Assembly: GCA_037443445.1 (NCBI GenBank)
Contig: JBBIOJ010000008.1
Location: 4,122 to 68,121, forward strand
Source of the DNA: Desulfarculaceae bacterium
Lineage (GTDB): Bacteria > Desulfobacterota > Desulfocorpusculales > Desulfocorpusculum
Reading direction: 5' to 3'
DNA length: 64,000 nt
Positions 1,691 through 28,610 of the stretch are shown here, piece by piece (within the stretch, counting starts at the first letter, position 1; every line of letters starts with the position of its first letter). Position numbers and translations under genes: made by a program. Below the pieces are notes generated by a model. It was not told the origin of the DNA, did no database searches, and saw only the letters and a program-made list of their open reading frames with translations.

Positions 1691-1874
1691 TTGCGGATCT
1701 CCCGTGTCTTACCTCCTGGTAGTGCAACTTCCGCCGGAGCATTGTATGATTGAATACCGAGGGATGCAAGCGGAAAAGATGAAAGAACGAGCTATTGTGG
1801 GTATAAGGGTGGGGAAGAACAAGAAGGGAAAGGACTGAACAGGCCGAGAAGACTGCAAAAAGGGGGGGATCGGG

Positions 1875-2462: not shown

Positions 2463-2490
2463 CAGCCCTGGCACAGGGGGGGAGAAGCCC

Positions 2491-4038: not shown

Positions 4039-4046
4039 TGCCTTTC

Positions 4047-4092
4047 AACCAGCAACCAGAAGAAGGTATTGAACCAGCAACCAGCAACCAGC
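4047..4092 (+). repeat. Intergenic heptamer repeats (AACCAGC), 2 + 3 copies
   Basis: AACCAGC AACCAGA at 4047-4060 and (AACCAGC)x3 at 4072-4092. Confidence 0.55.
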
Positions 4093-4108
4093 TCCAGAGG
4101 TTTCCCAA

Positions 4109-5143
4109 ATGTACGAATCCTTCTTCGGTCTTGAGAGAAAGCCCTTTGAGATCACCCCTGACCCGGCCTTCATGTACGCAAGCCCCCAGCACAAGGAGGC
4201 CTTGGCAAGCCTCATCTACGGGGTAAAGGAGAAAAAAGGCCTTATGGTGCTCACCGGGGAGGTGGGCACCGGGAAGACCCTCCTTCTGCGCTGCCTCCTC
4301 CAGATGCTGGGCCCGGACACCAAGACCGCGTACATCATAAACCCCAGGCTCAGCCTCATGGAGTTCTTCCACTCTATGGCCCACGAGTTGGAGCTGGGGG
4401 GGGAATTCCCCACCAAGGCTGCCTTCCTGGAGCGCATCAACGGGTTTCTCCTGGAGACCGCGGCCAAGGGAGGCAGGGCGCTTCTGATAGTGGACGAGGC
4501 CCAGAACCTGGGGCTTCCCATCCTGGAGGAGATAAGGCTCCTGATGAACCTGGAAACTGCCAAGCAGAAGCTTCTCCAGGTGATACTGGCAGGCCAGCCC
4601 GAGCTGCACAAGATCATTGAGTTCAGCTGCATGAGGCAGTTCAAACAAAGGATAAGCCTCAGGGCGCACCTGAACCCTCTCAGCCTGAAGGAGACAGGCC
4701 TTTACATAAGAAGAAGGCTGGAGGTGGCCGGCCTGAAGCAGGGGGAGATCTTCGGGAAGAGGTGCGTGGGTTTGATTCACAACTACAGCTGCGGGATCCC
4801 AAGGCTCATAAACGTGGTTTGCGACAACGCGCTTCTCACGGCCTTTGCCCTTGGGAAAAAGAAGGTGGAGCCTGGGGTTGTGAAGGAGGTCATAGGGGAC
4901 CTGGAGGGAAAGGGGCTCAAGCGAGTGGGAGGGCTCATCTGGCCCAGAGACGAGCGGGACCTGGTACAGGAGTGGACCATGCCCAGAGACCGAGGGAAGG
5001 CCCCGGGGACTGCCAGGTGGGTGTGGGCTGCGGTGGGGCTGGTGGTGGCCCTTGCAGGGGCCCTGGCCATGGTGGGGGGAGGCGCCCAGTGGATTCCCAG
5101 GGTCTGGGCAGGCCTAAAGAGGTTCCTGGATCTGGCAGGGTGA
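4109..5143 (+). CDS. ExeA/GspA-like AAA ATPase (XrtA-system-associated type)
   Basis: MYESFFGLERKPFEITPDP start, Walker A GEVGTGKT, Walker B LIVDEAQNL, GIPRLINVVCD, C-terminal TM helix. Confidence 0.92.
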   Translation: MYESFFGLERKPFEITPDPAFMYASPQHKEALASLIYGVKEKKGLMVLTGEVGTGKTLLLRCLLQMLGPDTKTAYIINPRLSLMEFFHSMAHELELGGEFPTKAAFLERINGFLLETAAKGGRALLIVDEAQNLGLPILEEIRLLMNLETAKQKLLQVILAGQPELHKIIEFSCMRQFKQRISLRAHLNPLSLKETGLYIRRRLEVAGLKQGEIFGKRCVGLIHNYSCGIPRLINVVCDNALLTAFALGKKKVEPGVVKEVIGDLEGKGLKRVGGLIWPRDERDLVQEWTMPRDRGKAPGTARWVWAAVGLVVALAGALAMVGGGAQWIPRVWAGLKRFLDLAG

Positions 5144-5247
5144 GTCTTGCACGAGTCTTGCAACAGGGTGGTCTGGCTCGGAAAGGTTGAAAAGACCCTG
5201 GAGTTGTTTTCCAGGGGGCTTGCAGTGCAAGCAGGAGGTGGAGGGAT

Positions 5248-6123
5248 TTGAGCAAGGTATTCGAGGCATTGAAAAAGGCTGAGAAGGACCAGGGGCTCTT
5301 GGAGCCCGTGCGTTTGGTTTCGGGCCAGGAGGCCCGGGAGGATGGGGGTGATGTGCCCTCGGAGGTGGCAGGCCTTGGTTCGGTGCTGGCCAAGGGCCGG
5401 GAGGAGCCGCCCGCCCGGGTGAGCCCATGGCTCTTGGTCTGCAGCCAGGCACATGGGCACGTGGTGGAGCAGATAAAGCGCTTGAGGACTCATATCCTGC
5501 ATTCAGCGCCGGGTTCGGATGTCCCCAGAGTGATAGTTGTCACAAGCGCCTCTGCAGGGGAGGGGAAGTCTCTTGTCTCGGCCAATCTGGCGGCCAGCAT
5601 AGCCCAAGGCCTGAGAGAGTCGGCCATGCTCGTGGACGCTGACCTCCGCCACGGAAAGCTGCACAGGTTCTTCCATGTGAGACCCTCCCCAGGTCTTTCA
5701 GACTACCTGGCAGGGGATTCAGACCTGGGAGAGGTGGTGCGGGAAACACCAATCCGGAAGCTTTCCCTGGTGACCTGCGGATCCTCAAGGCCAAACCCCA
5801 TAGAGCTCATCTCTTCGGAGCGGATGAGGTCCATGATAGAGCAGGTGCCCTCCCAGAAAGACAAAACCTTCCTGGTCTTGGACACCACCCCAGCCCTTCT
5901 GACAAGCGAACCCAGTATCCTGGCCCGCATGGCAGACGGGGTGGTCTTTGTGGTGCGCCACGACCTGACCCCCAGAAACTGCATCAAAGAAGCCCTGGAA
6001 TACTTCCCCAAGGAAAAGCTCCTGGCCTTGGTGTTCAACGATGTGCCACCCCAGTCCTTGAAGCTTTACGGGCATGCGTACGGATCCTACTACTATTGGG
6101 GCACATACAGGGAAGAAGCATGA
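5248..6123 (+). CDS. CpsD/CapB-family bacterial tyrosine kinase
   Basis: Walker A GEGKS, VDADLR, LDTTP, C-terminal Tyr cluster YGHAYGSYYYW. TTG start after a GGAGG-like RBS. Confidence 0.92.
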   Translation: MSKVFEALKKAEKDQGLLEPVRLVSGQEAREDGGDVPSEVAGLGSVLAKGREEPPARVSPWLLVCSQAHGHVVEQIKRLRTHILHSAPGSDVPRVIVVTSASAGEGKSLVSANLAASIAQGLRESAMLVDADLRHGKLHRFFHVRPSPGLSDYLAGDSDLGEVVRETPIRKLSLVTCGSSRPNPIELISSERMRSMIEQVPSQKDKTFLVLDTTPALLTSEPSILARMADGVVFVVRHDLTPRNCIKEALEYFPKEKLLALVFNDVPPQSLKLYGHAYGSYYYWGTYREEA

Positions 6124-6329
6124 AAGCCGGGATCATTAGCCTGTGCCGGAAGAAATTGGGAATCGGGGGATCCACGTCGAGATTCTTTACACCGACCCGG
6201 ATTGTCCTACGAGCTGGAGCAGATTGGGGGCTTGTGCCCCCGAGCCCCTGGGATGCTTCAAGGGGTTTTGCCGAACGGGGAGGCTCTTTTCAGGTCCGGC
6301 TGCACTACTCCTTCCACATAAAGCAGCAC

Positions 6330-6521
6330 GGGCCGGGGGTGAACCCCGCTCCTACGAGCCCTAACATATTGGAATCAGGAGGTTTGAGGTAGGGGAGGGG
6401 TTTATCCCCTCCCGCAAGGTTTTGGGGTTTTGGTTTTGCCCGGGCATTTCGGGCGGGGGTGAACCCCGCCCTTACGAGACCCATGGACACCGAAATGGGG
6501 GCGGGTGTGGACCCCTGCCTC
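6330..6521. repeat. GTAG-type REP / BIME-like cluster (about 4 REP units)
   Basis: Palindromic units GGGCGGGGGTGAACCCCGCCCCTAC and GTAGGGGAGGGGTTTATCCCCTCCC. Linkers are shared with the cluster at 20834-21145. Confidence 0.8.
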
Positions 6522-6582
6522 GTGGCCCGGCCAATCTAGAAGGGCAGCCCGGCATTCTCCACGAGGGCAGAATCAATCTGGC

Positions 6583-6825
6583 TTAGAGCACCAGGATCAG
6601 GATCCCAGCCCACATGGAGGCGCTCAGAAGCGCCCCCAGGAGGATCCCTTTCATGAATCTGGTTCCTGAGTCCCTGTCCTCCAGAAGTTGGCTAGCGGCT
6701 TGGGAAGGGCCCCCGGGGAGGGCTTCTGCCTGGGGGTTGAAGCCCAAGGGCCCTTGCAGTATTTCATCTCCCAGCCCCTGGCGGGCCTCCTGTGACGAGA
6801 CACTCCATGCGCAATGCTCCATCAC
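6583..6825 (-). CDS. Small protein with a single C-terminal TM helix
   Basis: GGAGG RBS before GTG/ATG, 25 nt downstream of the FN3 gene on the same strand. Hydrophobic C-terminus ILLGALLSASMWAGILILVL. Confidence 0.6.
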   Translation of the reverse strand: MMEHCAWSVSSQEARQGLGDEILQGPLGFNPQAEALPGGPSQAASQLLEDRDSGTRFMKGILLGALLSASMWAGILILVL

Positions 6826-6850
6826 GAACCTCCTATGGGATCATTGCAGC

Positions 6851-7756
6851 TCATTGAATAAGAAAACCTCCCGGAGAAGAGGCCCGGCAGGCCCCGTGGC
6901 TTTCCGAACGAACCACCACTCTGTGGCGTCCGCCTGGCCTGAGTTGCTGGGGCAAGCTCCAGGAGAACTCCCCTGTGTTGGGCACATGGGTGCCTATGAA
7001 ACACAGGCGTCTGGAACCTCGGTGCAGGGACAGGGAAACCGAATCACCGCAGAAGCTGGCCGGGTTCCATCGGATCCAAACCAAATCTCCCCTGGAAAAC
7101 ACGGTCCCTTCCTGGGGAGCCGTGACCAGGGGCTCCAGGATGGAAAAGGTCTTCTGGGATTCATCCATTTCCTGCGGAAGCTGTTTGCCCCGGACCCTGA
7201 GCAAGTAACCCTCCCCAGGGGGGTGTTTCTTTCGCACCCTGAAAAGGAAGGAGCCGTCGTTGGGGGTGGAAGAGCTCAGGGTGATATTTCCAGAGGGGCC
7301 CGCCAGCTCCAGGGAAACACTCGAGGACTCAAAGCCGGCCCACCTGATTTCGTACACACAGCCCCGTGCCCAGGTCACACCCCCGGCTTTGGGGTAAACC
7401 AGTCTGGGCTCTGCGTAGAGATCTGCGAAGACCTCCTGACTGTACCCGCTTTCCAGCCCGTCCAGATTCAAAGCAGTGACAGCAAAGTACCAACGTCCCT
7501 GGGGCAGCTCCAGTGTGTGCTGGCACACCCCGGCGCTGCACTGTCTGGAGCCCACTTCTTCATGGAGGCTGTAAGTTCGAGAGGAGTTGCCGTAGTAAAG
7601 ACGGTAGCTCCTGATGCGCTCCTCAGGGGGGGATTCGTCCCAGGCCAAGGTTACCTGGAGAGCCCTGGCCTGCCCCGTGAGGCAGGAAAAGAAAAGCCAG
7701 ATTAAAGCCAGGCCGTGGGGAATGAAAAGTGTTGTATTTTTGTCGCTACGAGTCAA
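6851..7756 (-). CDS. Secreted protein: FN3-like domain + two Ig-like (Kre9/GPI-anchored-type) domains
   Basis: Signal peptide ending ARA. VTLAWD...YRLYYG...WYFAVTALN..GLESGYS. Two repeats of P.GG..W..G..Y.I.W and NDG/NTG.F.W. Confidence 0.8.
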   Translation of the reverse strand: MTRSDKNTTLFIPHGLALIWLFFSCLTGQARALQVTLAWDESPPEERIRSYRLYYGNSSRTYSLHEEVGSRQCSAGVCQHTLELPQGRWYFAVTALNLDGLESGYSQEVFADLYAEPRLVYPKAGGVTWARGCVYEIRWAGFESSSVSLELAGPSGNITLSSSTPNDGSFLFRVRKKHPPGEGYLLRVRGKQLPQEMDESQKTFSILEPLVTAPQEGTVFSRGDLVWIRWNPASFCGDSVSLSLHRGSRRLCFIGTHVPNTGEFSWSLPQQLRPGGRHRVVVRSESHGACRASSPGGFLIQ

Positions 7757-7870
7757 GAAAATCCCTCTCCAGAAGGATCCGGATCCTGGAAGAACAGAGC
7801 CCCGAGGCCGCAGGCCGAGGATTTGTCGGCTTTTTCCCCCATGGTTTCTTTTTTCTTCTCTTTGGCCTTA

Positions 7871-7885
7871 GCAGGAAAGATGCCA
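7871..7885 (-). promoter_or_regulatory. Putative sigma54 (-24/-12) promoter
   Basis: Minus strand TGGCATCTTTCCTGC has exact GG-N10-GC spacing, about 115 nt upstream of the 7756 gene. Confidence 0.6.
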
Positions 7886-8340
7886 TGGCTTGAACCAATT
7901 CTTGGCCGGGAGGGGAAGGACACAAAGGTTGCGCAGGACTCGGATCTTGGGGCCCGGGGGCCTGGGATCCCAGGAAACCCCGGGGGAAAGCGAGAAAGTG
8001 CATGGGATCCGCGGGTGCCCACGTCCTAGAGAGGGCCATCCTGCACATGATGGCTCCTGGGCCCTTGAGTAATAAATTAAATCTCAAGTTGCTTAGCATC
8101 TACAAGCTCAAATGTCAAGTGAGGAATTGATGCATAACCATTGGATTTTCCAGTTTATGGCTGGATAGGCCCATGTGCCTGGGCCCACCTTGGGAACTGT
8201 AGCCCCCAAGCCCTTTGGGGATTGCCTTGAGGGAGGGGTCTTCTCCCATGTGGCGGAGCCCGGGTCAAGACCCAAACGAATTTGTTTGCACCTGGGCCCC
8301 GGAATGGTTAGAATCGGCCTGGAGGTTTTTGGGGGGAGAA

Positions 8341-8586
8341 ATGCAAGGAGCCGGAGTGGGGATTCCCGGTGAGAGTGTTGCCTTGAGCACGGTGGAAAGA
8401 AGAGTGGCCGAGAGACGTGTTGGGGACAGGAGAAAAGGGGAGAGGAGAGCCCCGGTTGTGGACTACGGGTTTCTTCTCTCTGGGGTGGCCTGCAGGCGTA
8501 GCGGTCAGGACAGGAGGGTGGCAGAGAGACGGCAGGGGGAAAGGAGAAGAGGCACGCAGGGCTACTTGGGGATACCTGCCCAGTAG
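8341..8586 (+). CDS. Small Arg-rich protein with repeated (D/E)RR motifs
   Basis: GGAG RBS before ATG 8341. ERRVAERRVGDRRKGERR...RRSGQDRRVAERRQGERRR. Confidence 0.65.
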   Translation: MQGAGVGIPGESVALSTVERRVAERRVGDRRKGERRAPVVDYGFLLSGVACRRSGQDRRVAERRQGERRRGTQGYLGIPAQ

Positions 8587-8714
8587 CCCTTCAATTCGAA
8601 ACAGGCCCTTTCAGAAGGCTGTTCTGAGTTTTCCTTGCTTGACCCAAGGACAAATTGGGTCAAGGGGACCTGGGCATCTTAGGCCAGAACCCCTTGACCC
8701 CAATTTTTTTCCGG

Positions 8715-10286
8715 CTATTCTTTGCGGCTCAGCTTCAGGCCCTTGGGGGGCGAGGGGGCCGTGTTTACCCGGATGGTGAAGCTCTTGGACTGGGTGGCCC
8801 CGTCGTCATCTCTTACCTGCACGAGGGCTGTGAAAGTCCCCTCCACACTATAGGTGTGCTGGGTGACCAACCTGGTGTCAGTGGTACCGTCCCCGAAATC
8901 CCAGAGCACAGAGACTATTTGGCCATCGGGGTCAGATGCTGAGGCAGTGAAGGAAACCGTAAGGGGTGGCGCACCCCTGAGGGGTGAGGCCTCGGCAGTG
9001 AGACTGGGAGGCTGGTTGGGGGGCTGAACTGTTATCTGGATTGACTTGGAGGCCGTGGCCCCTGCATCGTCCCTCACGGTGAGGGTGGCAGTGTAGGTTC
9101 CTGCTGTGCTGTAAGTGTGTGTGGGGCTTTGCTGGGTGGAGCCGAGGCCATCACCGAAAGCCCAGGAGTAGCTGGTGACAGTGCCGTCGGGGTCTGTACC
9201 AGACCCCACGAAGGCTACGGTCAAGGGCGCATGCCCCGAGGTGGGTGTGGCAGTCAAGTTGGCAGAAGGGGGCTGATTCGGGGCCGTGACCGTGATCTGC
9301 ACCGAGGCCGAGGCAGTTGCCCCGTCATCATCCCTCACGGTCAGACGGGCTGTGTACTGGCCAGCACTGTTGTAAAGGTGGGAAGGATTTGCCTGGGAAG
9401 AGGAACCTCCGTCCCCGAAGTCCCAAGAGTAGCTGGCAATGCTCCCGTCACTGTCAGAGGCCGATGAAGAGAAGGAAACATTCAAGGGAGCCTGGCCTGA
9501 TAGGGGAGCCGCGGAGATGCTCAGCGTTGGAGGCAGATTAGGGGGAAGCACGTTGATCTGCACTGTGGCGCTGGCCGTGGCCCCGTCATTGTCGCTGATT
9601 GTCAAGCGGGCAGTGAAAGTGCCGGCAGTAGTAAAGGTGTGGGAAGGATTCTGGAGATTGGAAGAAGCCCCGTCCCCGAAATCCCAGGAGTAGGACACTA
9701 TGGTGCCGTCCTGGTCCGTGCCGTTGCCCTGGAAACTCACTGTCAGGGGGGCGTGGCCCGAGCCAGGAGATGAGGAGGCCGAGGCCTGGGGAGGGAGATT
9801 GTTCCTGGCGCTCACCTCGTTGGAATACCCGCTCTCATTCCCCTCTGTGTCATACGCGGTCACGGCAAAGTAATACGTGACCCCGTCTTGGAGCCCTGTC
9901 AGGGTGTACTGGGTGAGGTTGCCCACATCCATGTTTTGTTGGTAGCTGCGGGAGGAGGTCCCGTAGTAGAGCTTGTAACCGGCCAGATCAGGCTCCTGAT
10001 TGGGATCCCAGGCCAGGGTGAAGCTGGCCCCGGGGCTGGAAACAGGGAAGACAAGCCAATTGAAAAGAAAGACCCAGGACCAAAGCCAGAAGGAAGGCCT
10101 GCCTCCTGGGAACCCCGGGCCGGACCACCGGGGCCTGAAGCCATGCTGAGGCCCTGTTCCGAGGCCTTCTGCGAGAGACCTAGGAACTCCTCTTTCCCCG
10201 TTCTGCCTGATCCCCACCCCTGAGCTCCCGGGCATTTTCCTGCTCAACCCTTCCAGTCTTTGCCCCTCTGCAATACTTGCCAACAA
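8715..10286 (-). CDS. Secreted FN3 + 4x PKD-domain protein (true start probably downstream of 10286)
   Basis: FTLAWDPN...YKLYYG...YYFAVTAYD, followed by four APL.V.F...D.DG.I.SY.W(D/A)FGDG repeats. Confidence 0.9.
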   Translation of the reverse strand: MLASIAEGQRLEGLSRKMPGSSGVGIRQNGERGVPRSLAEGLGTGPQHGFRPRWSGPGFPGGRPSFWLWSWVFLFNWLVFPVSSPGASFTLAWDPNQEPDLAGYKLYYGTSSRSYQQNMDVGNLTQYTLTGLQDGVTYYFAVTAYDTEGNESGYSNEVSARNNLPPQASASSSPGSGHAPLTVSFQGNGTDQDGTIVSYSWDFGDGASSNLQNPSHTFTTAGTFTARLTISDNDGATASATVQINVLPPNLPPTLSISAAPLSGQAPLNVSFSSSASDSDGSIASYSWDFGDGGSSSQANPSHLYNSAGQYTARLTVRDDDGATASASVQITVTAPNQPPSANLTATPTSGHAPLTVAFVGSGTDPDGTVTSYSWAFGDGLGSTQQSPTHTYSTAGTYTATLTVRDDAGATASKSIQITVQPPNQPPSLTAEASPLRGAPPLTVSFTASASDPDGQIVSVLWDFGDGTTDTRLVTQHTYSVEGTFTALVQVRDDDGATQSKSFTIRVNTAPSPPKGLKLSRKE

Positions 10287-10319
10287 CCCCGATTAGATCC
10301 CCCTCTCATAGCCAAGGGC

Positions 10320-11294
10320 CTACTGTGCGGCAAAGTACCCCTCGGAATATCCGAAGCAGCCCTTGTTCCAACTGGCGGCTATCTTTATGCGGTAGCGGCT
10401 GCTGGGCTTGAGCTCCGGGGGGACCTCCCACTGGTAATAGCCCGTGTTGGGGGCCGAGGGGGCAATGCTCAAGACCTGCCTCGTACCCTTGAGAAGGGAT
10501 ATTTCCACCTCAGGGCCGCAGAAGGTCTCTGGATCCCAGATGATGCTTTGCGGGTTTGCCTTCTCCAGCAAAGTCCCCTTGGCAGGGGATATTACAGTGG
10601 GGGCCACTATCCGGAACTCCTCCTCCGAGGAATCGGCCTCCTGTTTCCCAGAGACCCTCACACTGTAGCCCTCCCCGGGCTGTACCTTCTTGCTCACGAC
10701 CCAGGAGAAGACCCCGTCGTTCTTAGTGCCCTTGGCGATTTTCCTTGCCGGAACCCCGTCTTTCAGAAGCTCCAAGGTGAGCTTGGGGTCAGAGAAATTC
10801 TCCCAGAGGATGTCGTAGGAACAGCCCCTGATCCAGGTGATTGTGCCGTTGGGATAGACGAGGGTGGGCTCCAGGCTTCCAGAGATCACGTGGAGCTCCT
10901 GGCTAAAGTCGCTTTCATTCGCTTGCTGGTCAAAGGCTGTCACAGCCACGTACCAGTGGCCTGGCTCCAGATCCACCTCTGCAGTGCAGGAGTTCCCCTG
11001 GCAGGCCTCTGTGCCCAGGGGCAAATGGTAATGGTATTGGCGAGGTTCAGAACCCCAGTAAAGGATATAGCCTGCCACGTCAGGCTCAGGGCTGCGGTCC
11101 CATTGGAAGCGAAAGCTCTCCCCCATGGCAGAGCCAGCCACAACGAGCAGGAGTGCCTGGCCCAGAAGCCCTGCAAGCCCCCAAGGGCCCCTCCTGTTCA
11201 AAATTGTCCTTGGTTTCACAAAATCGTAATTCCTCTCTGGCCCAACATCCTGCCCCACCCGATCAATCACATTTAATATCGCTAAGTTATCCAT
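10320..11294 (-). CDS. Secreted FN3 + two Ig-like (Kre9-type) domain protein, paralogue of 6851..7756
   Basis: Same architecture and shared motifs (CxxxxC in FN3, W.RGC, FCG, PNTG...W). Start placed downstream of the sigma54-like site; exact start uncertain. Confidence 0.8.
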   Translation of the reverse strand: MDNLAILNVIDRVGQDVGPERNYDFVKPRTILNRRGPWGLAGLLGQALLLVVAGSAMGESFRFQWDRSPEPDVAGYILYWGSEPRQYHYHLPLGTEACQGNSCTAEVDLEPGHWYVAVTAFDQQANESDFSQELHVISGSLEPTLVYPNGTITWIRGCSYDILWENFSDPKLTLELLKDGVPARKIAKGTKNDGVFSWVVSKKVQPGEGYSVRVSGKQEADSSEEEFRIVAPTVISPAKGTLLEKANPQSIIWDPETFCGPEVEISLLKGTRQVLSIAPSAPNTGYYQWEVPPELKPSSRYRIKIAASWNKGCFGYSEGYFAAQ

Positions 11295-19477: not shown

Positions 19478-19618
19478 ATTTGAGCAGGCAGCTTGGGGCA
19501 CTCCAGTACCTGGGGCCCCCAACCGGGCAGGAAGTGGTGAGTAGCAAGGGCCGGCCCCGCAGGAGTGAAAGGGCAGCCCCAGGAGCAAGAACTCAGTGCA
19601 GCCGAGAGGAGGGAAGCC

Positions 19619-20188
19619 ATGGGGGAGAAGAGTTCCGAGACCGTGTATTTCGAAAAACCCGGGCCGGCCAACACGGAAAGAACCCTTGAGGTGGCAGCCA
19701 AGAGGGTTCAGGAACTGGGGCTTGGGAGCGCCCTGGTGGCTTCCACCAGCGGCCACACAGGCCTCAGGGCTGTCCAGAGGTTCCGGGGTCTGAGTGTGGT
19801 GGTGGTCACCCACTCCACAGGGTTCAGAGAGCCCAACACCCAGGAGCTCACCCCTGAGAACAGGGCCGCCATAGAGGAGGCAGGGGGAAGGATACTGACG
19901 TGCATGCACGCCTTTGGCGGACCCAACAGGGCCGTCAGGATAAAGCTGGGCACCTATGCCCTGGATGAGATAGTGGCCTATGTGCTGCGCACCCTGGGCC
20001 AGGGCTTCAAGGTCTGCGTGGAGATAGCCCTCATGGCCGCCGATGCGGGGCTGGCCAGGGTGGGTGAGCCATGCCTGGCCATAGGCGGCACAGGGAGGGG
20101 CGCGGACACTGCCGTGGTCCTCTCGCCCGCCAATGCCCAGAATTTCCTGGATATCAAGATCCATGAGATACTCTGCAAGCCTTATTGA
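19619..20188 (+). CDS. Pyruvate-kinase C-terminal-like (MTH1675-type) protein
   Basis: YFEKPGPANT, VASTSGHT, GQGFKVCVEIALMAADAG, GGTGRGADTA. Confidence 0.85.
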   Translation: MGEKSSETVYFEKPGPANTERTLEVAAKRVQELGLGSALVASTSGHTGLRAVQRFRGLSVVVVTHSTGFREPNTQELTPENRAAIEEAGGRILTCMHAFGGPNRAVRIKLGTYALDEIVAYVLRTLGQGFKVCVEIALMAADAGLARVGEPCLAIGGTGRGADTAVVLSPANAQNFLDIKIHEILCKPY

Positions 20189-21213: not shown

Positions 21214-21576
21214 TCATGGGTTCAGCCAGCGAAGCACCCGGAAGTGGTAAGCCGTGGGGTTCAGGCCCTCCATCTCCTTGAACACATCTATGAAATCTTT
21301 TGCCTTTATCAGGTAGCAGGTGGAGCCCCTGAACACAGCCACCACCACCCCCTCGGGACTTTCGGGATCCAGGGACTTGTACTTCAGATAGCGTGCAAAA
21401 AACGGGTACACCCGGTCCCTCAAGTATTCCCAGGGCCGGTCCTCCATCAAGGACAACTCATAGTGGAGAACCCTTTCCTGGGCAGAGTCCGCCAGGTCCT
21501 GCCGATACCTGTTGTAGTGCTCTCCGGGCATGCTCAAGTAGGCCTTGCCCAGGAGCAGATCCAGATAAGCACCCAT
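21214..21576 (-). CDS. Hypothetical protein
   Basis: Follows the AhpD-like gene on the same strand, with typical codon usage. Start may be 21576 or 21531. Confidence 0.75.
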   Translation of the reverse strand: MGAYLDLLLGKAYLSMPGEHYNRYRQDLADSAQERVLHYELSLMEDRPWEYLRDRVYPFFARYLKYKSLDPESPEGVVVAVFRGSTCYLIKAKDFIDVFKEMEGLNPTAYHFRVLRWLNP

Positions 21577-21601
21577 TTTGGCAGCCCCCGCAGGCCTTGC
21601 C

Positions 21602-22132
21602 TCACTCCAAAGGAGGTGCATCCAGATAGTCCAGCTCCACATCCCCCACTATGGCCACGTAGTTGGAAAGGGTGGCCAACGCAATGGTGCCCAGGGCCTC
21701 CACCAGCTCCTCGTCAGTGAAGCCCTGTGCCTTGACCTCCTGGAAGGCCTCTTCGGAGATGTGCCCCCTTTTTTCCACCACCTCCCGCGCGAAGTTGAGC
21801 AGCGCGTTGATCCTGGGATCTGGGCTGACTCCCTTTCTGGCCTGGAGGCTCTCCTCTTTGGTCATCACCCCGTGCTCCACTGCTGTGGCGGTGTGGGAGG
21901 CCAGACAGTAATGGCACCCGTTGATCTGGGACGTGAGCAGGTAAACCATCTCCCTGAGCTTCTTGTCCAGCCGGGCCGCCTCCATGCAGCGGGTGAGCTT
22001 CAGAAATCCGTCAAACACGGTGGAGGAGTTGGCCATCATGCAGTAGAGGTTGGGGACCATCCCTACCTGGTCGAAGAGCTTGCGCGTGAAAGCATCTGCC
22101 TCTTCCGGCTCCACATAGTTGAATCTGGGCAT
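21602..22132 (-). CDS. AhpD/carboxymuconolactone decarboxylase-family protein
   Basis: GMVPNLY, REMVYL..SQINGCHYCLASH (CxxC-H). Confidence 0.9.
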   Translation of the reverse strand: MPRFNYVEPEEADAFTRKLFDQVGMVPNLYCMMANSSTVFDGFLKLTRCMEAARLDKKLREMVYLLTSQINGCHYCLASHTATAVEHGVMTKEESLQARKGVSPDPRINALLNFAREVVEKRGHISEEAFQEVKAQGFTDEELVEALGTIALATLSNYVAIVGDVELDYLDAPPLE

Positions 22133-22356
22133 TGCGAACCTCCCCCTTCACAATGGGGCCCCGGGGCTCCCGAGGCTGCTTGGAGTGAGTACCAAAGTAG
22201 CAAGCCCGTGTCAAGGGGGCCTGGGTTCTCGAAAACAGCCCAGGGTTCCCAGGGGAAAGGGGGGGGCGATCCAGGGGGAAGGCCCTGCCTTGCCAGATTG
22301 TGCTGAAGGGCCGGAAAGGATACCATTGGGATTCAGAGTCCTGCTCAGGGGAAAGC

Positions 22357-24090
22357 ATGCGTGCCAGGATAGCCTCCATAGAGAACCTCATAGCACAAGA
22401 CCCTGGCCATAGAAACATCTTGCCTCTCATCCAGCGGGACCACCTGCGCCTGGCTGCCATGAGCCTTCTGGGGGCCAGGCAGGTGCTCTTGACCAGCGGC
22501 TTCCCCATCCTCAAGGCACTCGCAGGAGAGACGGACGGCCCTCCAGGGGTCCTGGCCATTGGTCAGGCCCTCACCAGGCTGGGCATCCAGGTGGCGTACA
22601 TGACCGACAAGCGCCATGAACACCTGTTCCAGGCCATTGGCGCAATGCCCCTGATTCCTTTCGGGCCTGGGTTACTCCAAAAGCATGGGTTCTCTCACCT
22701 GGTGGCAGTGGAGCGGCCCGGAAGGGCCAGAGACGGCCGCTACTACAACATGAGGGGGGAGGAGATCACTGCACTGGTGGAGCCCCTGGACCGGCTTTTC
22801 ATGGAGGCCGAGCTGAGCGGCGCTCTCACCATTGGTATCGGGGACGGAGGCAACGAGGTGGGCATGGGCAGGGTCTTCAGGGGGGTGGCCAGGGCCATAG
22901 AAAATGGATCCAAGATCGCCTCCGTAGTGCTCACGGACTACGTGGTAGTCTCAGGAGTCTCCAACTGGGGTGCGTATGGCCTGGTGGGAGCCCTCTCAGT
23001 GCTGAGCGGCCAAGACCTCTTGCCCTCCGGGGATGAGATCAGAGAGACCCTGGGAAGGCTGGTCATGGCCGGGGCCGTGGACGGCCTGAGCGGCAAACCA
23101 GAACTCAAGGTGGATGGCCTTGAGCTGGAGCACACCTTGGAGCTGGTGGAGGAGATCCGGTGCCAGCTTCGCCCAGCGCCTTTGAGCCGGGTGAAAGGGC
23201 TTGAGGTGGGGGTGGTGGGGGCAGGCCGAAGCGGGCTGGCTGTAAGCCGATTGCTGGCTTCCCAGGGGGCCCGTGTGCGAATAACCGAGCAGCGCCACGT
23301 GGAGGTGCCCAGAGATCTGGAGAAGTGCAGTTGGGAGCTGGGTGGCCACAGTTTGGATTTCATGGAAGGGGTGGAGCTAGTTGTGCGGAGCCCAGGGGTG
23401 GACCCTCGCATTCCCCTCATCAGGGGGCTCAGGCAAAGGGGGGTCCCGGTTGTGAGTGAGCTAGAGGCTGCATTCCAGCTTGGTGAGCCAAAGCTGGTGG
23501 CCGTCACAGGAAGCAAGGGCAAGAAGAGCACCGTGGAGCTCCTGTCAGCCGTCATGGCCAGTTGCGCAAGACCAATTCCCATTGGTGGGAACAAAGGAAA
23601 GCCTCTTTCCGAGCTCCTGCTAGAAGACCCCCAGAACTGGATGGCCCTGGCAGTCTCCAGCTTTCAGATGGAAAGCATAGTGCGATTCAGACCGCGGGTG
23701 GCCGCCATACTGAATATCCTCCCTCTCCACCTGGACCGGCACCAGGACCCCGCAGAAACGGTCCGCATCAAGAGCCGCATCTTCATGAACCAGGGAGCAG
23801 AAGACCTGCTCATCTTGAACCATGACGACCCAAGGCTGAGACCCCTGGCAGAGAAACACTGGGGGGAGACGATGTGGGTCTCTTCCAGGGAGCCTGTGGA
23901 CAGGGGGGCCTGGATCCAGGGAAACGAGGTTTTCTTGGCTCCGCAGGGGGATGTGGTGGAACAGATAGGCTTTGAGGGCGCCATCCCCCCAGAGAACCTC
24001 CTAACCGCCATCTTGGCAGCATGGGCCCTGGGCATAAAGCCGGCTCAACTGCAAGGTGCCCTGGCTCACCTGGGACATCCAGGTTCATGA
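22357..24090 (+). CDS. Fusion of a DUF4392 (D-glutamate cyclase-like) domain and truncated, degenerate MurD N-terminal + middle domains
   Basis: ETDGPPG, VERPGRA.DG.YYNMRG, IGDGGNEVGMG, VSNWG, then GAGRSG, SPGV, SELE, VTGSKGK, VSSFQ, HLDRH, NHDD. Confidence 0.85.
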   Translation: MRARIASIENLIAQDPGHRNILPLIQRDHLRLAAMSLLGARQVLLTSGFPILKALAGETDGPPGVLAIGQALTRLGIQVAYMTDKRHEHLFQAIGAMPLIPFGPGLLQKHGFSHLVAVERPGRARDGRYYNMRGEEITALVEPLDRLFMEAELSGALTIGIGDGGNEVGMGRVFRGVARAIENGSKIASVVLTDYVVVSGVSNWGAYGLVGALSVLSGQDLLPSGDEIRETLGRLVMAGAVDGLSGKPELKVDGLELEHTLELVEEIRCQLRPAPLSRVKGLEVGVVGAGRSGLAVSRLLASQGARVRITEQRHVEVPRDLEKCSWELGGHSLDFMEGVELVVRSPGVDPRIPLIRGLRQRGVPVVSELEAAFQLGEPKLVAVTGSKGKKSTVELLSAVMASCARPIPIGGNKGKPLSELLLEDPQNWMALAVSSFQMESIVRFRPRVAAILNILPLHLDRHQDPAETVRIKSRIFMNQGAEDLLILNHDDPRLRPLAEKHWGETMWVSSREPVDRGAWIQGNEVFLAPQGDVVEQIGFEGAIPPENLLTAILAAWALGIKPAQLQGALAHLGHPGS

Positions 24091-24252
24091 GAATCCAAAC
24101 CCTCGAACCAGGTGCCTGCCTCGAGCGAAGAAAGCCGGGGATTGAACTGGCTTGGGGAAGCTTGCTATGCTGCAGCCCTCTGCACGGGGAGGCCCCAGGG
24201 ATCAGCAAGGAGGTTGAGCGAGTTGGGTGAGAAAACATGGGAAACAGAGCAG

Positions 24253-25623
24253 ATGCGAGAAGATGCCAGGGCGATTTTCCAGGCTGCCCTGGCTGCAGTG
24301 GACCCCGAGGAGGCAGTTCTCAGGCACCTTAAGCTGGATGGGGAGCTCCTCCAGGTGGGGGAGTTGGGCCTGGAGTTAAACAGGTTTGAGAAGATCTGGA
24401 TCTTGGGTGCCGGAAAAGCCAATGCGCCCATGGCCCGCGCCTTGGAAAGGCTGCTGGGAGACAGGATCTCAGGGGGATTGATAGTGGTAAAGGAGGGCCA
24501 CGGCCTGAACTTGGGGCGGGTACAGGTTTGGGAGGCCTCGCATCCCCTGCCTGACCAGAGGGGCGTGGAGGGGACCAGCAGGGTGCTCCAACTGGCAAGC
24601 AAAGCCGGCCCAAGGGACTTGGTCTTGGCTCTTTTTTCAGGGGGTGGATCAGCCTTGCTGGTGGCCCCAGCCCAGGGGCTCTGTCTTGAGGACAAGCAGC
24701 AGACCACAAGAGTGCTCCTGGCATGTGGGGCCACCATCCACGAGATCAATACTGTGAGGAAACACCTCTCCCTGGTCAAGGGCGGCCAGCTGGCCAGGGC
24801 CTGTTATCCGGCCACGGTACTCAGCCTGATCCTGTCGGACGTGATAGGGGACGACCTGGATGCCATAGCCTCGGGGCCCACAGTCCCTGACACCAGCACT
24901 TACGCCCAAGCCAGGGAGGTGCTCCTGAAGTACGGGGTCTGGGGAAGTGTCCCGGAAGCTGTAAGGGAAAGGCTGGAGGCGGGCTGCCAGGGAAGACTTG
25001 AGGAGACCCCCAAGGCGGAAGACCCCTGCTTTCAGAACACCCACTGGAAAATACTGGGGAGCAACCTAGAGGCACTAAAGGCTGCCAAGGTCCACGCCGA
25101 GAAGATAGGTTACAGGGCTTTGGTGCTCAGCTCGGGCATGGAGGGGGAGGCCAGAGAGGTGGCAAGGGCCCTGGCAGCAATGGCCAAGGAGGTGCTCAGA
25201 TCCGGGAATCCCATACCGGCTCCGGCATGCCTACTTTGCGGTGGTGAGACCACCGTGACCCTCAGGGGCGGTGGGAAAGGAGGCCGAAACCAGGAGTTTG
25301 TGCTGGCAGCGGCCATGGCCCTGGAGGGCTGGGAGAATGTGGTGGTTCTGAGCGCAGGCACCGATGGGACAGATGGTCCCACTGACGCGGCAGGGGCTTT
25401 GGCAGACGGTAGCACGGTACAGAGGGCTCGCAAAACCGGTCTTTCGCCTGAGGCCCATCTCATGGAGAACGATTCCTACAACTTCTTCAGGTCCTTGGGT
25501 GAGCTCTTGGTTACGGGGCCTACCAGGACCAATGTGATGGATGTAAACATCTTCTTGATGCGTGAGTCCAAGGTAAGAACTTGCTTCGGCTTCAAACAAG
25601 AAGGGGGAAAAAAGTTGGAATGA
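24253..25623 (+). CDS. Class II glycerate kinase (MOFRL/TtuD family)
   Basis: GAGKA, SHPLPD, SGGGSAL, KGGQLA, GGETTV, GGRNQE, TDGTDGPT, TNVMD. Start uncertain. Confidence 0.93.
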   Translation: MREDARAIFQAALAAVDPEEAVLRHLKLDGELLQVGELGLELNRFEKIWILGAGKANAPMARALERLLGDRISGGLIVVKEGHGLNLGRVQVWEASHPLPDQRGVEGTSRVLQLASKAGPRDLVLALFSGGGSALLVAPAQGLCLEDKQQTTRVLLACGATIHEINTVRKHLSLVKGGQLARACYPATVLSLILSDVIGDDLDAIASGPTVPDTSTYAQAREVLLKYGVWGSVPEAVRERLEAGCQGRLEETPKAEDPCFQNTHWKILGSNLEALKAAKVHAEKIGYRALVLSSGMEGEAREVARALAAMAKEVLRSGNPIPAPACLLCGGETTVTLRGGGKGGRNQEFVLAAAMALEGWENVVVLSAGTDGTDGPTDAAGALADGSTVQRARKTGLSPEAHLMENDSYNFFRSLGELLVTGPTRTNVMDVNIFLMRESKVRTCFGFKQEGGKKLE

Positions 25624-25721
25624 GAGAAGAACGGCAGGCCAGACCCTGTGAACAGAGATTGTGGAGGGAGGGGCTGCCTCAAATTGGAATGGGGAACTCA
25701 AAAAAACAGGGAGGAAGATCC

Positions 25722-28610
25722 ATGGGGAGGCTTTTGGTTGCTCTTTGGCTTGCGACTTTGGCTTTGGTGGGGCTGGCCCAGGCTCAGGAACCGGTTCTCA
25801 TCGGAAGGGTGGCACACATAGAAGGAGGGGTGCTTCGGTACGTGACCGTGGAGGACGACTGGGTGGCAACCGTGGCCGACTCTCCCCTTAGGGCAGATGA
25901 CATCATATACACCGAGCCTGCGGGGAGGGCTGAGTTCATATTCCCCAACAACACCTGGGTTCGGGTGGATGGAAACACGGGTGTGGATGTGGTTGCCCTG
26001 AGAAGGGATCTCACTGGCATTTACGTGGATGGGGGAGTGCTGCGGGTTTACAACAGGAGCCAGGAGGCTCTGGTGAGGGTGGAGACCCGCCTGGGTTACC
26101 TGGCTGCTGAGCCAGGGGACGTGGTGGATCTCTACGTGGGGGACGAGGATATCCAGGTCATAGCCCTGGAGGGCTCTCCCAACTTCTTTTACATAGGCAG
26201 GGGCAGAGAGGAGATCCGCTACGAGGTCCTGGCAGACGGCCCGGCCATTTTCGTTGACGAGATGAGTGTGGAGGCGGCCGAGCCCCTGGTGGACAGGGAC
26301 TGGGAAAGCTGGAACTACAAGAGGGATCAGCTCCTGGCCGAGCGCAGGCGGGTTCGCTCAGCCCATCTCCCCGAGGCTTTTCAGTACGATGCACAGGTGT
26401 TCGAGACCCAGGGCAGATGGGAGAGGGTCTATTACAGGGAGAAATACGTCTGGTGCTGGACACCCATCCATGTGGACGTTAGCTGGAGGCCCTTCACGGT
26501 GGGGCGCTGGACCACATACTACGAGGAGAACGTGTGGGTTCCTTATGAGCCCTGGGGTTGGGTGACACATCACCACGGGCACTGGATACAAGTGGAAAAC
26601 AGGTGGTGGTGGACGCCATACGTCTCTGTGAACGTGGTGACTCCAGGGGTGGATGTGAGGGTGGATGTGGGAGTCCCCCCTCCGCCGGACTACTACTGGT
26701 ACTGGCATCCGGGACGTGTGGCATGGATCCACAGCGAGGTGCACGTGGGATGGTTCCCCCTTGCCCCATGGGAGCCGTACTATGGCTGGTATCCATGGTA
26801 CGGGAACACGGTGGTAGTGAACAACACCAACATAACGAATATCAACATCAACATCTCCAATTACAATTATTTCAGTAACGCGGTGGTAGTTAATTACAAC
26901 AACTTCTACAATGTGCCATACGGTAACAACTATATTCAGAATAATGTCATAAACGTGACCAACGTCAACAATACAACTATAATAAACAATTACCATGCGG
27001 CTCCTGTTATCCACAAGACGGTGATAAAAAATCAAAATTTTTTCAAGAATCAATATAATTTTTCCGACCGGCAAATTGTTTACAAGCCGCATCACTCGGT
27101 CGTGGAGAAGGCCTCCTTTGCCAAGAGCAGTTTTCAGAAACACGGGTTCACCAGTGCTGCCGATTATCACGGCAAGCGGGACAGGGTTCTCAAAGCAGAT
27201 CCCCCCCTGGGGGATGCGCACAAAAGAGCGCGGGGGCTGGCGGCAGCCAACAAGCTCGTAAAGCCGGAGGAGGTGAAAAAGCCGGCGGGTCAGATGAAGT
27301 TCGGCTCCAAGGAGCCCAAGCTTCAGGCAGAGAGGCCCAAGCTGCACGAAGCCGAAAAGCAAAGCTCAAGGCAGATAAAACAGGCAGCCTCCCAAGGGGG
27401 ACTCGGCCGGGAAGGTCGCACCGGAAGACCGGGGAAAGGGGGCCTCCAGGAGGCCACCGGGAAGGCAAGGGATGAGAAGCCGGGGGTTTCCGGGGGAAGA
27501 AGGGGCAAGGAGGATTCCCTGAGGCCCACCGGTCAGGAAACAAGACAGGACAGGCCCCCGAGGGACAGAGATGTGAAGCTGCAAGGGGAAGGCAGAAAGG
27601 GAGTGGTGGAGGACTCTGGAGGCCGGGCAGGCAGACGCCTCAGGCCAGAGCAGGAAGTGAAGCGTGGTGAGCTCAAGAGCGGAGCCGGGTCAGGTGAACC
27701 GGAGAAAACAAGCCAGGGAGGTCAAAAGCGGGTAGAGGGCAGGCGCACAGGCCGGCCGGGGCCTGCCGGAGCTGAGACAGGGCTAAAGGGCATGGAAAAA
27801 CAAGGCGGCGCGGCCCAGTTGGAAGACCGGCCCGGCCATGGCAGGAGGGACACAGAGAAAGCCACCAGGTCAAAGGGGCTGGACAGGCCAGAGGAGGCCA
27901 AGGGACATGGCCAGCCTTCCATGGAAAAGCCCAAACAGAGGGGTCTCCAGGAAGGCTCCTCCAGGGGGGAGCCCCAAAGCAGCACAGGCGGCCCCCAGAA
28001 GCCTCAGGACAGACTCAAGGCCTCAGGGCAGGAGCAAAAACCGGACAAACAGAAATCTTCCCAGGGCCCTGGACAGGCAAGACAGGAGCTGAGACCCGGA
28101 CAGGAAAGAAAACAGCTCCAAGAACAGGGACCCTCGCACCAAGGCTCCCACCAAAGGCAGCAGCAACCAACACAGGAGCAGGGTAGACAAAAACCCAAGC
28201 AGCAGCTCCCAGAGCAGCAAAAGCCCAAACAGCAAGGGCAGGTTCACCAGGGACAACCCCAAATGCAGCAGCAGCACCAGGGCCAGCAAAGACAGTTGCA
28301 GCAACAGCAGCAGCAACACAAACAGATGCAGCACCAGCAACAACAGCCAAGACAGGAGCTAGGAGGCCAGAAACCCAAGCAGCAGCTCCCAGAGCAGCAA
28401 AAGCCCAAACAGCAAGGGCAGGTTCACCAGGGACAACCCCAAATGCAGCAGCAGCACCAGGGCCAGCAAAGACAGTTGCAGCAACAGCAGCAGCAACACA
28501 AACAGATGCAGCAGCCAGGCCCTCAGGGCCAGCGCGTCCAGCAGCCGCAGCACGAGGACCCACAAAAGAGGAAAAAGAAGCCTCAGCATGGAGAGCAGCC
28601 CCAGCAGTAA
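25722..28610 (+). CDS. Secreted FecR-like + DUF6600-like protein with an Asn-rich segment and a long disordered Gln-rich tail
   Basis: GGAGG RBS and signal peptide. WRPF..GRW...WVPYEPWGWVTHHHGHW...VGWFPLAP.E. Low-complexity C-terminal half. Confidence 0.85.
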   Translation: MGRLLVALWLATLALVGLAQAQEPVLIGRVAHIEGGVLRYVTVEDDWVATVADSPLRADDIIYTEPAGRAEFIFPNNTWVRVDGNTGVDVVALRRDLTGIYVDGGVLRVYNRSQEALVRVETRLGYLAAEPGDVVDLYVGDEDIQVIALEGSPNFFYIGRGREEIRYEVLADGPAIFVDEMSVEAAEPLVDRDWESWNYKRDQLLAERRRVRSAHLPEAFQYDAQVFETQGRWERVYYREKYVWCWTPIHVDVSWRPFTVGRWTTYYEENVWVPYEPWGWVTHHHGHWIQVENRWWWTPYVSVNVVTPGVDVRVDVGVPPPPDYYWYWHPGRVAWIHSEVHVGWFPLAPWEPYYGWYPWYGNTVVVNNTNITNININISNYNYFSNAVVVNYNNFYNVPYGNNYIQNNVINVTNVNNTTIINNYHAAPVIHKTVIKNQNFFKNQYNFSDRQIVYKPHHSVVEKASFAKSSFQKHGFTSAADYHGKRDRVLKADPPLGDAHKRARGLAAANKLVKPEEVKKPAGQMKFGSKEPKLQAERPKLHEAEKQSSRQIKQAASQGGLGREGRTGRPGKGGLQEATGKARDEKPGVSGGRRGKEDSLRPTGQETRQDRPPRDRDVKLQGEGRKGVVEDSGGRAGRRLRPEQEVKRGELKSGAGSGEPEKTSQGGQKRVEGRRTGRPGPAGAETGLKGMEKQGGAAQLEDRPGHGRRDTEKATRSKGLDRPEEAKGHGQPSMEKPKQRGLQEGSSRGEPQSSTGGPQKPQDRLKASGQEQKPDKQKSSQGPGQARQELRPGQERKQLQEQGPSHQGSHQRQQQPTQEQGRQKPKQQLPEQQKPKQQGQVHQGQPQMQQQHQGQQRQLQQQQQQHKQMQHQQQQPRQELGGQKPKQQLPEQQKPKQQGQVHQGQPQMQQQHQGQQRQLQQQQQQHKQMQQPGPQGQRVQQPQHEDPQKRKKKPQHGEQPQQ
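28191..28513 (+). repeat. Exact 143-nt intragenic duplication, offset 180 nt
   Basis: 28191-28333 is identical to 28371-28513. Confidence 0.9.

Follow-up and report, generated by a model that had tools for sequence, protein, structure and literature searches.

The window analyzed here is a 64,000-nucleotide stretch of the genome of a Desulfarculaceae bacterium (GenBank assembly GCA_037443445.1, contig JBBIOJ010000008.1, positions 4,122 to 68,121), and our subject is a gene on its plus strand that joins a DUF4392-type domain to the first two domains of the D-glutamate (D-Glu) ligase MurD (Table 1). The gene is a single uninterrupted frame, from an ATG at 22357 to a stop codon at 24090, and encodes 577 amino acids. 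A GTG at 22300 offers an alternative start; the ATG is favoured because 577-residue homologs with 82–84% identity begin there. The Pfam profile of DUF4392 (PF14336) is matched over its full length (positions 1–291 of 291) with 262.8 bits against a gathering cut-off of 27.9 (E = 5.7e-78), and is followed by matches to MurD-like_N (PF21799, MurD-N; E = 1.5e-9) and Mur_ligase_M (PF08245, Mur-M; E = 7.5e-14). Against TIGR01087, the murD equivalog of NCBIfam, the protein scores 192.9 bits, under the cut-off of 211.95 (murC reaches only 52), and the alignment covers model positions 2–299 of 441, with the C-terminal domain missing. Pfam found no match to Mur_ligase_C (PF02875) in the protein, and the polypeptide stops about 24 residues after Mur-M, where MurD domain 3 would start. 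DUF1445 (PF07286) is likewise absent from the protein according to Pfam, so that the single-chain pairing seen in the mammalian protein DGLUCY does not occur here. An AlphaFold2 model of the whole chain reached a predicted local distance difference test (pLDDT) score of 88.2 and a predicted template modeling (pTM) score of 0.89.

A preliminary description of the locus had proposed an in-frame fusion ending before the C-terminal domain of MurD, on which Pfam and TIGR01087 agree. The four altered motifs that it listed can all be read in the translation (GSKGKKS, residues 385–391; LAVSSFQ, 431–437; PLHLD, 456–460; PPEN, 544–547), as can the UDP-sugar motifs that it gave as kept (GAGRSG, 288–293; SPG, 345–347). 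The fusion is a conserved protein composed of a complete DUF4392-type metal enzyme and MurD domains 1 and 2, with no domain 3.

Table 1. Features of the fusion locus, in window coordinates
Feature	Position	Strand	Evidence
Whole gene, DUF4392 + MurD domains 1–2 fusion	22357..24090	+	Open reading frame (ORF)/translation, Pfam, NCBIfam, AlphaFold2 model
DUF4392/GLUCM-like_C/TON_0340-type metal-enzyme domain, residues 8–268	22378..23160	+	PF14336, phmmer, Foldseek
MurD-like N-terminal (UDP-binding) domain, residues 284–366	23206..23454	+	PF21799, family conservation
Mur ligase middle domain, remodelled, residues 383–553	23503..24015	+	PF08245, TIGR01087, Foldseek
P-loop GSKGKKS, residues 385–391	23509..23529	+	Alignment with E. 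coli and own-genome MurD
Ala432, position of MurD Glu157 (E. coli literature numbering)	23650..23652	+	Family alignment
Downstream neighbour, DUF4147 + MOFRL, glycerate-2-kinase-like	24112..25623	+	Pfam, NCBIfam
Upstream divergent neighbour, CMD (carboxymuconolactone decarboxylase/AhpD-like) family	21602..22132	-	Pfam

Distribution and origin of the fusion

A search of a 5.8-billion-protein collection returned 520 matches at E ≤ 1e-5, with 8000 candidates scored and 120 homologs listed. PF14336 and PF08245 occur together in all 120 listed homologs, 116 of which are 550–640 amino acids long and four 864–913; they come from Syntrophobacteraceae, the SAR324 cluster, Planctomycetes and Phycisphaerae. 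Within a 301-genome sample of the phylum, the full-length fusion was found in six genomes, all belonging to the family of the window, where six of the seven genomes carry it and the exception (G101) consists of 830 contigs. The preliminary description would have been undone by a fusion unique to this assembly, which these homologs contradict.

The missing C-terminal domain and the altered catalytic motifs are what one would also expect of an assembly chimera or a decaying pseudogene. That explanation has next to no chance of being right: the frame is intact, the same architecture recurs across the listed homologs from many sources and on long contigs, the gene is present in most genomes of the family, and the model is confident. 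Pairs of family members have an average identity of 0.64 in the DUF4392 part, 0.53 in MurD-N and 0.58 in Mur-M, so that the MurD half, nearly as conserved as the DUF4392 part, is under selection and strongly constrained. Homolog listing, family occurrence and MurD-half identity together refute a chimera or pseudogene. The term "degenerate" that had been applied to the MurD half implies decay, yet its changes are conserved through 120 family members; as read from the alignment described below, they are a family-wide remodelling.

To place the fused proteins among their relatives, we built a quick IQ-TREE phylogeny of DUF4392 domains from 23 fused sequences (a subsample of the 120) and 48 stand-alone ones, the latter taken from loci whose central ORF is 260–345 amino acids long and on the plus strand. 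Every fused domain falls on one side of a branch with a Shimodaira–Hasegawa-like approximate likelihood-ratio (SH-aLRT) support of 99. The fused side comprises a Desulfobacterota-type subclade of seven, which includes the protein of the window, a Planctomycetota-type subclade of 15, and a SAR324 protein. A single origin followed by spread of the fusion is the simplest reading of this tree.

Forms longer than 1010 amino acids were not found at E ≤ 1e-20 among 7999 candidates, which is weak evidence. Split forms shorter than 317 amino acids (query residues 276–577) gave 21 matches, mostly on contigs under 5 kb and probably fragments. Four MurD-half-like proteins of 248–286 amino acids (P0123, P0131, P0132 and P0139) lie on contigs of 16–194 kb and may be genuinely split or stand-alone heads; P0131 additionally has FAD/NAD-binding Pfam matches.

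The preliminary description knew of no earlier account of this architecture. That is not quite right, since databases already hold the architecture and name it loosely, for example as "glutamate cyclase domain-containing protein"; we found no paper describing a DUF4392–MurD fusion. The main text of a survey of Mur chimeras covers only MurE–MurF, MurC–Ddl, MurC–MurB, MurG–MurC, MurD–FtsW and MraY–MurG, and its supplement might list rarer ones (PMC10214165).

The DUF4392 half retains a complete metal site

The DUF4392 half is related to TON_0340 of Thermococcus onnurineus, with a phmmer E-value of 3.2e-46 against TON_0340 chains and a Foldseek superposition onto 4fc5_C that gives a target TM-score of 0.89 and a root-mean-square deviation of 1.9 Å. 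The acidic residues given as metal-binding in the accessible part of the TON_0340 study (Glu59, Asp61, Glu115, Asp157, Glu161 and Asp246; PMC5132392) are identical at six of six positions in the fusion (E58, D60, E119, D163, E167 and D253). In a 24-sequence alignment, five of the six ligands never vary, and the sixth, E167, is conserved at 90% or more. By these alignments, the metal site of the DUF4392 half is intact.

The only activity known for TON_0340 is an in vitro Mn²⁺-dependent phosphatase activity of unknown physiological meaning, and the protein has a small, invariant cavity, as far as the excerpt of that study goes (PMC5132392). The relationship of DUF4392 to the animal D-glutamate cyclase, which the preliminary description had pointed out, is borne out by the available parts of two papers (PMC5339696, PMC5132392). 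As another option, it had proposed an enzyme that acts on the glutamate of a UDP-MurNAc-peptide. This is less likely, given the small, invariant cavity of TON_0340 and the fact that most DUF4392 proteins work without a MurD part.

Remodelling of the MurD-derived half

Foldseek aligned the C-terminal half with domains 1–2 of MurD (3lk7) over 311 columns at E = 5.7e-24. We then aligned the 120 listed family members with the MurD of the same genome and with E. coli MurD (from NC_000913.3); residues are cited in E. coli literature numbering, which is one lower than that of the NC_000913.3 gene. In the portion of the MurD literature available to us (PMC9780078), UDP-MurNAc-L-Ala (UMA) is contacted by Leu15, Thr16, Asp35, Thr36, Arg37, Gly73 and Asn138, ADP by Gly114, Lys115, Ser116, Thr117, Asn271, Arg302 and Asp317, and Mg²⁺ by His183, and the D-Glu contacts Thr321, Lys348, Ser415, Leu416 and Phe422 are all in domain 3.

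A large part of this framework persists in the fusion family. Gly73, Gly114, Lys115, Asn138, Asn178 and Arg200 are kept in 120/120 sequences, His183 in 119, Lys198 in 118 and Asn271 in 103, and three further positions are kept as a class (Asp35 as Asp/Glu in 120, Thr117 as Thr/Ser in 110, and Thr16 as Thr/Ser in 106). Other positions have changed. Ser116, which follows the P-loop lysine, is Arg in 106 of the 120, Lys in two and Ser in four, the protein of the window having Lys; Ile139 has become Arg or Lys throughout; Glu157 is Ala in 113 and Ser in the other seven, and never Glu; Asp182 is replaced by Ala (74), Leu (20) or Glu (14); and Asn268 is an aromatic residue or Pro in 115. The fusion thus resembles MurD at the UDP/UMA-contact and second-metal residues (Thr16, Asp35, Gly73, Asn138, His183 and Lys198), and departs from it in equivalog score, domain 3 and first-metal ligands (the P-loop G-K-[ST] and Glu157).

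We take Glu157 and the Walker Ser/Thr to be the first-metal ligands of MurD, and Lys198 to be carbamylated. On this alignment and the pairwise identities given above, the old MurD active site is under selection; domain 3 and the first-metal ligands are gone from it, and two basic side chains are new. D-Glu ligation by the MurD-derived half can be excluded on sequence grounds, because domain 3 (with the D-Glu site, Arg302 and Asp317) is absent, Glu157 is Ala, and the Walker Ser/Thr is Arg or Lys. Binding of an anionic nucleotide-type ligand by this half is plausible, and the sensing of UMA in particular would fit the residue pattern, in which UMA and phosphate contacts are kept and domain 3, Glu157 and Ser116 are lost.

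The same residues could also serve catalysis. The head might still phosphorylate or activate a carboxylate or lactam (5-oxoproline, D-Glu or UMA) by means of the P-loop lysine, His183, Lys198 and the two new basic residues, leaving the two-metal centre of DUF4392 to process the phosphorylated intermediate. The near-invariance of Lys115, Asn138, His183, Lys198 and Arg200 is in keeping with such a role and, with Glu157 lost and two basic residues gained, the site looks more like a phosphate pocket that has been redesigned than like a dead one. In addition, 5-oxoprolinase chemistry is ATP-dependent, an enzyme of this kind adjoins the gene in Phycisphaerae (see below), and the in vitro activity described in the available part of the TON_0340 study is that of a phosphatase (PMC5132392). 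We nevertheless regard a catalytic head, the main rival to the account that we favour, as rather unlikely: both presumed first-metal ligands have been replaced, most DUF4392 proteins lack a MurD part, so that the core chemistry does not need it, and the operon already contains a separate ATP-dependent enzyme. The absent domain 3 would also have carried Arg302 and Asp317, two of the ADP contacts listed in the excerpted source (PMC9780078).

Gene neighbourhoods and triple fusions link DUF4392 to DUF1445 and 5-oxoprolinase-type genes

We examined 80 loci from named genomes, comprising eight complete fused genes, one fused gene cut at residue 386 (L025, excluded) and 71 stand-alone DUF4392 genes; for the neighbours of the last group, one representative per cluster was scanned with Pfam. 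In the Phycisphaerae-type fused loci, a gene of about 1300 amino acids from one BLAST cluster lies directly upstream on the same strand in 7/7 cases (truncated in L024 and partly masked in L027), and proved to be Hydant_A_N + Hydantoinase_A + Hydantoinase_B in all four that were scanned by Pfam. Its product reaches no NCBIfam equivalog cut-off, the nearest models being caprolactamase subunits, far below threshold; it is an ATP-dependent lactam-opening enzyme of the oxoprolinase family and a candidate 5-oxoprolinase. Directly downstream, 4/7 of these loci have a gene of 266–279 amino acids, again of one cluster, which is PF07286 (D-Glu_cyclase/DUF1445) in 3/3 scanned by Pfam.

DUF1445 also occurs within the fused chain itself. 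In four of the 120 listed relatives (triple fusions), the chain reads DUF4392 – MurD-N – Mur-M – DUF1445, which puts DUF1445 exactly at the place of the D-Glu-binding domain 3 of MurD. Among the 71 stand-alone loci, DUF1445 is a neighbour in 21, directly upstream in 15 of these, and CT_C_D and CT_A_B, the folds of PxpB and PxpC, are neighbours in six each. Further possible partners of the DUF4392 module are a class-III aminotransferase, found beside eight stand-alone genes of Rokubacteria/Methylomirabilota type, and an enolase-superfamily protein (MR_MLE) found beside five in Dehalococcoidia (for both partners: L034, 10855–12210; L085, 6825–7973; and related loci).

The two families also co-occur by genome. 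In 101 Planctomycetota genomes, PF14336 is present in nine and PF07286 in 13, and all nine PF14336 genomes are among those 13; only four of the 92 genomes without PF14336 have PF07286, a comparison that, among partly related genomes, falls short of a formal test. The tie to D-Glu/5-oxoproline chemistry that the preliminary description had drawn is strongly backed by operon context, by the triple fusions and by co-occurrence. As a separate observation, three Planctomycetota genomes have a DUF1445 match inside frames of 1026–1707 amino acids (G315:C108:2636-3061, G321:C109:15289-15729 and G326:C373:4641-5081), which may be further DUF1445 fusions, perhaps with an oxoprolinase.

In the Desulfarculaceae genome itself, the fusion is the only PF14336 gene, and the single DUF1445 gene is located on another contig, C38 (NF003969, 402.6 bits, over the cut-off). 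It is followed there by a five-gene Liv-type ATP-binding cassette (ABC) transporter and a convergent pxpC-pxpB-pxpA set (L107 = G000:C38:4000-18000, 2325-10877). PxpB scores 216.8 bits with TIGR00370 (cut-off 145.55) and PxpA 369.6 bits with NF003814 (cut-off 226), and the PxpC-like protein is above the TIGR00724 cut-off and below the PxpC equivalog cut-off. The cluster looks like an uptake and 5-oxoproline/glutamate cassette. An M23 peptidase gene and an MgtC gene lie just upstream of it. Across the family of the window, DUF1445 is present in six of seven genomes, the miss being an 80%-complete genome. Hydantoinase A/B on contig C20 was considered as the counterpart of the Phycisphaerae oxoprolinase-type protein and set aside, as identity is only 27–29% and orthology is not clear.

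We also predicted a complex between the fusion and the DUF1445 protein of the same genome. It scored 0.39, against 0.02 for the best of three controls, which lends weak support to an interaction: the mark was reached by 58/80 solved complexes and 2/110 mismatched pairs, and passes that score 0.60 or less are wrong more frequently than they are right, except where the pairing was likely from the outset. Agreement among the three runs was at least 0% of contacts, and the partner pLDDT was at least 86.

Such an interaction is also what would be expected if the head were a pure protein scaffold, one that bridges DUF4392 and DUF1445 or docks onto a cytoplasmic Mur-ligase assembly and senses no small molecule. 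The position of DUF1445 directly after Mur-M in the triple fusions would suit this, as would the pTM of 0.89, which suggests a rigid two-lobed body, and the excerpted survey of Mur chimeras reports that MurD binds a MurE–MurF chimera at about 0.8 µM (PMC10214165). A scaffold, however, has no need for an invariant P-loop lysine, GGN, SSFQ, His183 and Lys198, nor for new basic residues that line the old active site and are conserved, and we consider a purely structural head very unlikely.

The source of D-glutamate

The preliminary description had advised a check for a canonical murD, and a separate full-length copy was found in the dcw cluster (C29:15631-16947; TIGR01087, 421.8 bits). This MurD carries Asp182 and Lys348, the D-Glu-type signature according to the accessible part of PMC8788868. 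No match to the glutamate racemase model TIGR00067 was found in the genome, which is 99.94% complete. A single gene of the PF01177 family exceeds the Pfam cut-off there; it scores as the cysteate racemase CuyB and lies beside CuyA. The genome's only class-IV aminotransferase scores as IlvE, so that neither a D-amino-acid transaminase nor a glutamate racemase is recognisable in this genome. The CuyB-like and D-cysteate sulfo-lyase CuyA-like genes are adjacent and both over NCBIfam cut-offs (L016 = G000:C15:65048-68707, 1453-3256); the pair follows an amino-acid ABC transporter and suggests L-cysteate degradation in this organism.

These findings raise the possibility that the module is biosynthetic, that is, a MurI-independent, ATP-driven supply of D-Glu for MurD via 5-oxoproline, switched on by the head when UMA builds up. 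Besides the lack of a TIGR00067 match in this genome and its D-Glu-type MurD, this would agree with MurI being over the cut-off in 0/5 fusion-bearing relatives and in 0/4 further Phycisphaerae-type carriers (the fifth genome of that set is identical with G165, a member of the family of the window). The absence of MurI is, however, part of the background: it is over the cut-off in 50/81 genomes of the phylum sample (31 without) and in 16/101 Planctomycetota (85 without). Another source of D-Glu must exist, because 74/101 Planctomycetota genomes have neither MurI (E ≤ 1e-20) nor DUF4392. None of the nine DUF4392 genomes of Planctomycetota is among the 18 with MurI, which differs little from the overlap of about 1.6 expected by chance. 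The phyletic signal that the fusion replaces MurI is uninformative, since most MurI-less genomes lack the fusion too. Glutamate cyclisation is moreover energetically favourable, so that DUF1445 would tend to consume D-Glu. A biosynthetic direction is unsupported, and the reading built on it is unlikely.

Local genomic context

The CMD-family and glycerate-kinase-like neighbours of the fusion recur at one other Desulfarculaceae locus (L019, genome G165). We did not retain them as context evidence, as they are shared only with a genome of the same family and are not independent. A scan for promoters and terminators over 21500–25900 gave no signal over the shuffled expectation.

Two other frames on the plus strand of the window deserve mention. 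The ORF at 25581–28610 encodes 1009 amino acids with a signal-like N-terminus, an Asn/Tyr/Trp-rich middle and a long Gln/Lys/Pro-rich tail, in which a segment of about 50 residues is duplicated almost exactly. The other frame, at 19565–20188, is flanked by clpB and an Hsp20 gene; its 207-residue product matches the pyruvate kinase alpha/beta domain below the cut-off (27.3 bits against 28).

A model for the fusion and its significance

From the observed architecture, conservation pattern, intact metal site and gene and fusion associations, we infer that the fusion is the DUF4392 subunit of a D-glutamate/5-oxoproline module, whose MurD-derived head is a non-ligase domain for ligand binding and bridging; its ligand would most likely be UMA, and it would couple D-Glu turnover to the demand for wall precursors. 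We hold this account to be evenly balanced between right and wrong. In it, a widespread bacterial module with D-glutamate and 5-oxoproline as its presumed substrates would bring together three components: a "D-glutamate cyclase" of the DUF1445 family, a DUF4392 protein, and a 5-oxoprolinase that depends on ATP and belongs to the PxpABC or to the hydantoinase A/B type. One DUF4392 clade would then have acquired the UDP-binding and central domains of MurD. The direction that we favour is salvage or catabolism, in which D-Glu would be converted to 5-oxo-D-proline and this to L-Glu. The head would sense UMA, or a nucleotide, and so tie D-Glu turnover to cell-wall precursor demand, and DUF1445 may dock where MurD domain 3 used to be.

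Several points weigh against this account. Thr36 and Arg37, two of the UMA contacts of MurD, are variable in the family. His183 and Lys198, which are kept, presumably hold the second Mg²⁺ and serve catalysis rather than substrate binding, and their retention accords with catalysis no less well than with sensing. The Desulfarculaceae genome shows no linkage of the fusion to DUF1445 or pxpABC, and the CMD and glycerate-kinase-like neighbours there are uninformative on glutamate. The neighbour counts come from a crude longest-ORF caller, and many of the counted genomes are kin. Finally, we found no paper that establishes which domain of DGLUCY bears the cyclase activity.

A more far-reaching version would have DUF1445, DUF4392 and the ATP-dependent 5-oxoprolinase form an unrecognised route of L-/D-Glu interconversion via 5-oxoproline, with the pseudo-ligase as a UMA receptor that gates the supply or destruction of D-Glu; such a route could be the missing D-Glu source of MurI-less bacteria such as this one. 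We rate it as quite unlikely.

Conservation of DUF4392 and DUF1445 extends from archaea to humans, in which the two make up DGLUCY. To this pair the fusion family adds a remodelled MurD as third linked partner, which ties the pair to the one pathway in which D-Glu is indispensable. It also names candidate ligands, namely UMA, nucleotides, D- and L-Glu, and 5-oxo-D- and 5-oxo-L-proline. Should the head prove to sense a ligand, it would clearly exemplify the reuse of a Mur ligase as a receptor domain; were the module to make D-Glu, it would help explain how some MurI-less Planctomycetota and Desulfobacterota that carry it build their walls. What this analysis adds is that the fusion extends beyond Phycisphaerae and can do without operon linkage, that the fused clade appears to have a single origin, that the MurD head has a residue-level pattern of kept and changed positions, and that in the triple fusions DUF1445 stands where domain 3 would be.

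Comparison with known systems

Like MurD, the fusion has GxGxxG, SPG, the P-loop Gly-Lys, GGN, SSFQ, Asn178, His183 and Lys198; unlike MurD, it has no domain 3 and hence no D-Glu site, and has Ala for Glu157, Arg/Lys for Ser116 and Ile139, and mostly Ala for Asp182. E. coli offers a precedent for the proposed regulation, since its glutamate racemase MurI is activated by UDP-MurNAc-L-Ala. Both cases would involve an enzyme that handles D-Glu and is gated by the substrate of MurD, which for the fusion is inferential; in MurI the effector binds the racemase itself, whereas the fusion would employ a whole MurD-derived two-domain receptor. TON_0340 (PDB 4DWZ, 4FC5, 5GL2-4) has the fold and the six acidic metal ligands in common with the fusion and differs in being a stand-alone protein of 268 amino acids.

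Bacterial 5-oxoprolinase operons provide a further parallel, in that DUF4392 genes are found next to DUF1445 and to genes of either the PxpB/C type or the fused hydantoinase A/B type. We take the B. subtilis operon ycsF-ycsG-ycsI-kipI-kipA to be such a case, with PxpABC alongside YcsI/DUF1445. The available part of one source bears on this operon only indirectly (PMC10448178). Mammalian DGLUCY (C14orf159; DUF1445 + DUF4392) has a C-terminal domain of the same family and the same DUF1445 partnership, as far as the excerpted papers describe it (PMC5339696, PMC5132392), and in bacteria the partnership takes the form of operon neighbours, triple fusions and co-occurrence. The animal protein, however, has DUF1445 at its N-terminus and no MurD part, whereas in the Desulfarculaceae genome DUF1445 is a separate gene on another contig, and in the triple fusions it is at the C-terminus.

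MurD2/MurL of Xanthomonas likewise combine a MurD paralogue with an unusual enzyme of glutamate stereochemistry, according to the accessible parts of PMC8788868 and PMC5808125. MurD2, however, is an active ligase that has all three domains and a Glu197/Arg358 signature, and the fusion lacks the domain that bears Arg358. MurL is described as having no known domains, and the MurD of the Desulfarculaceae genome is of the Asp/Lys type.

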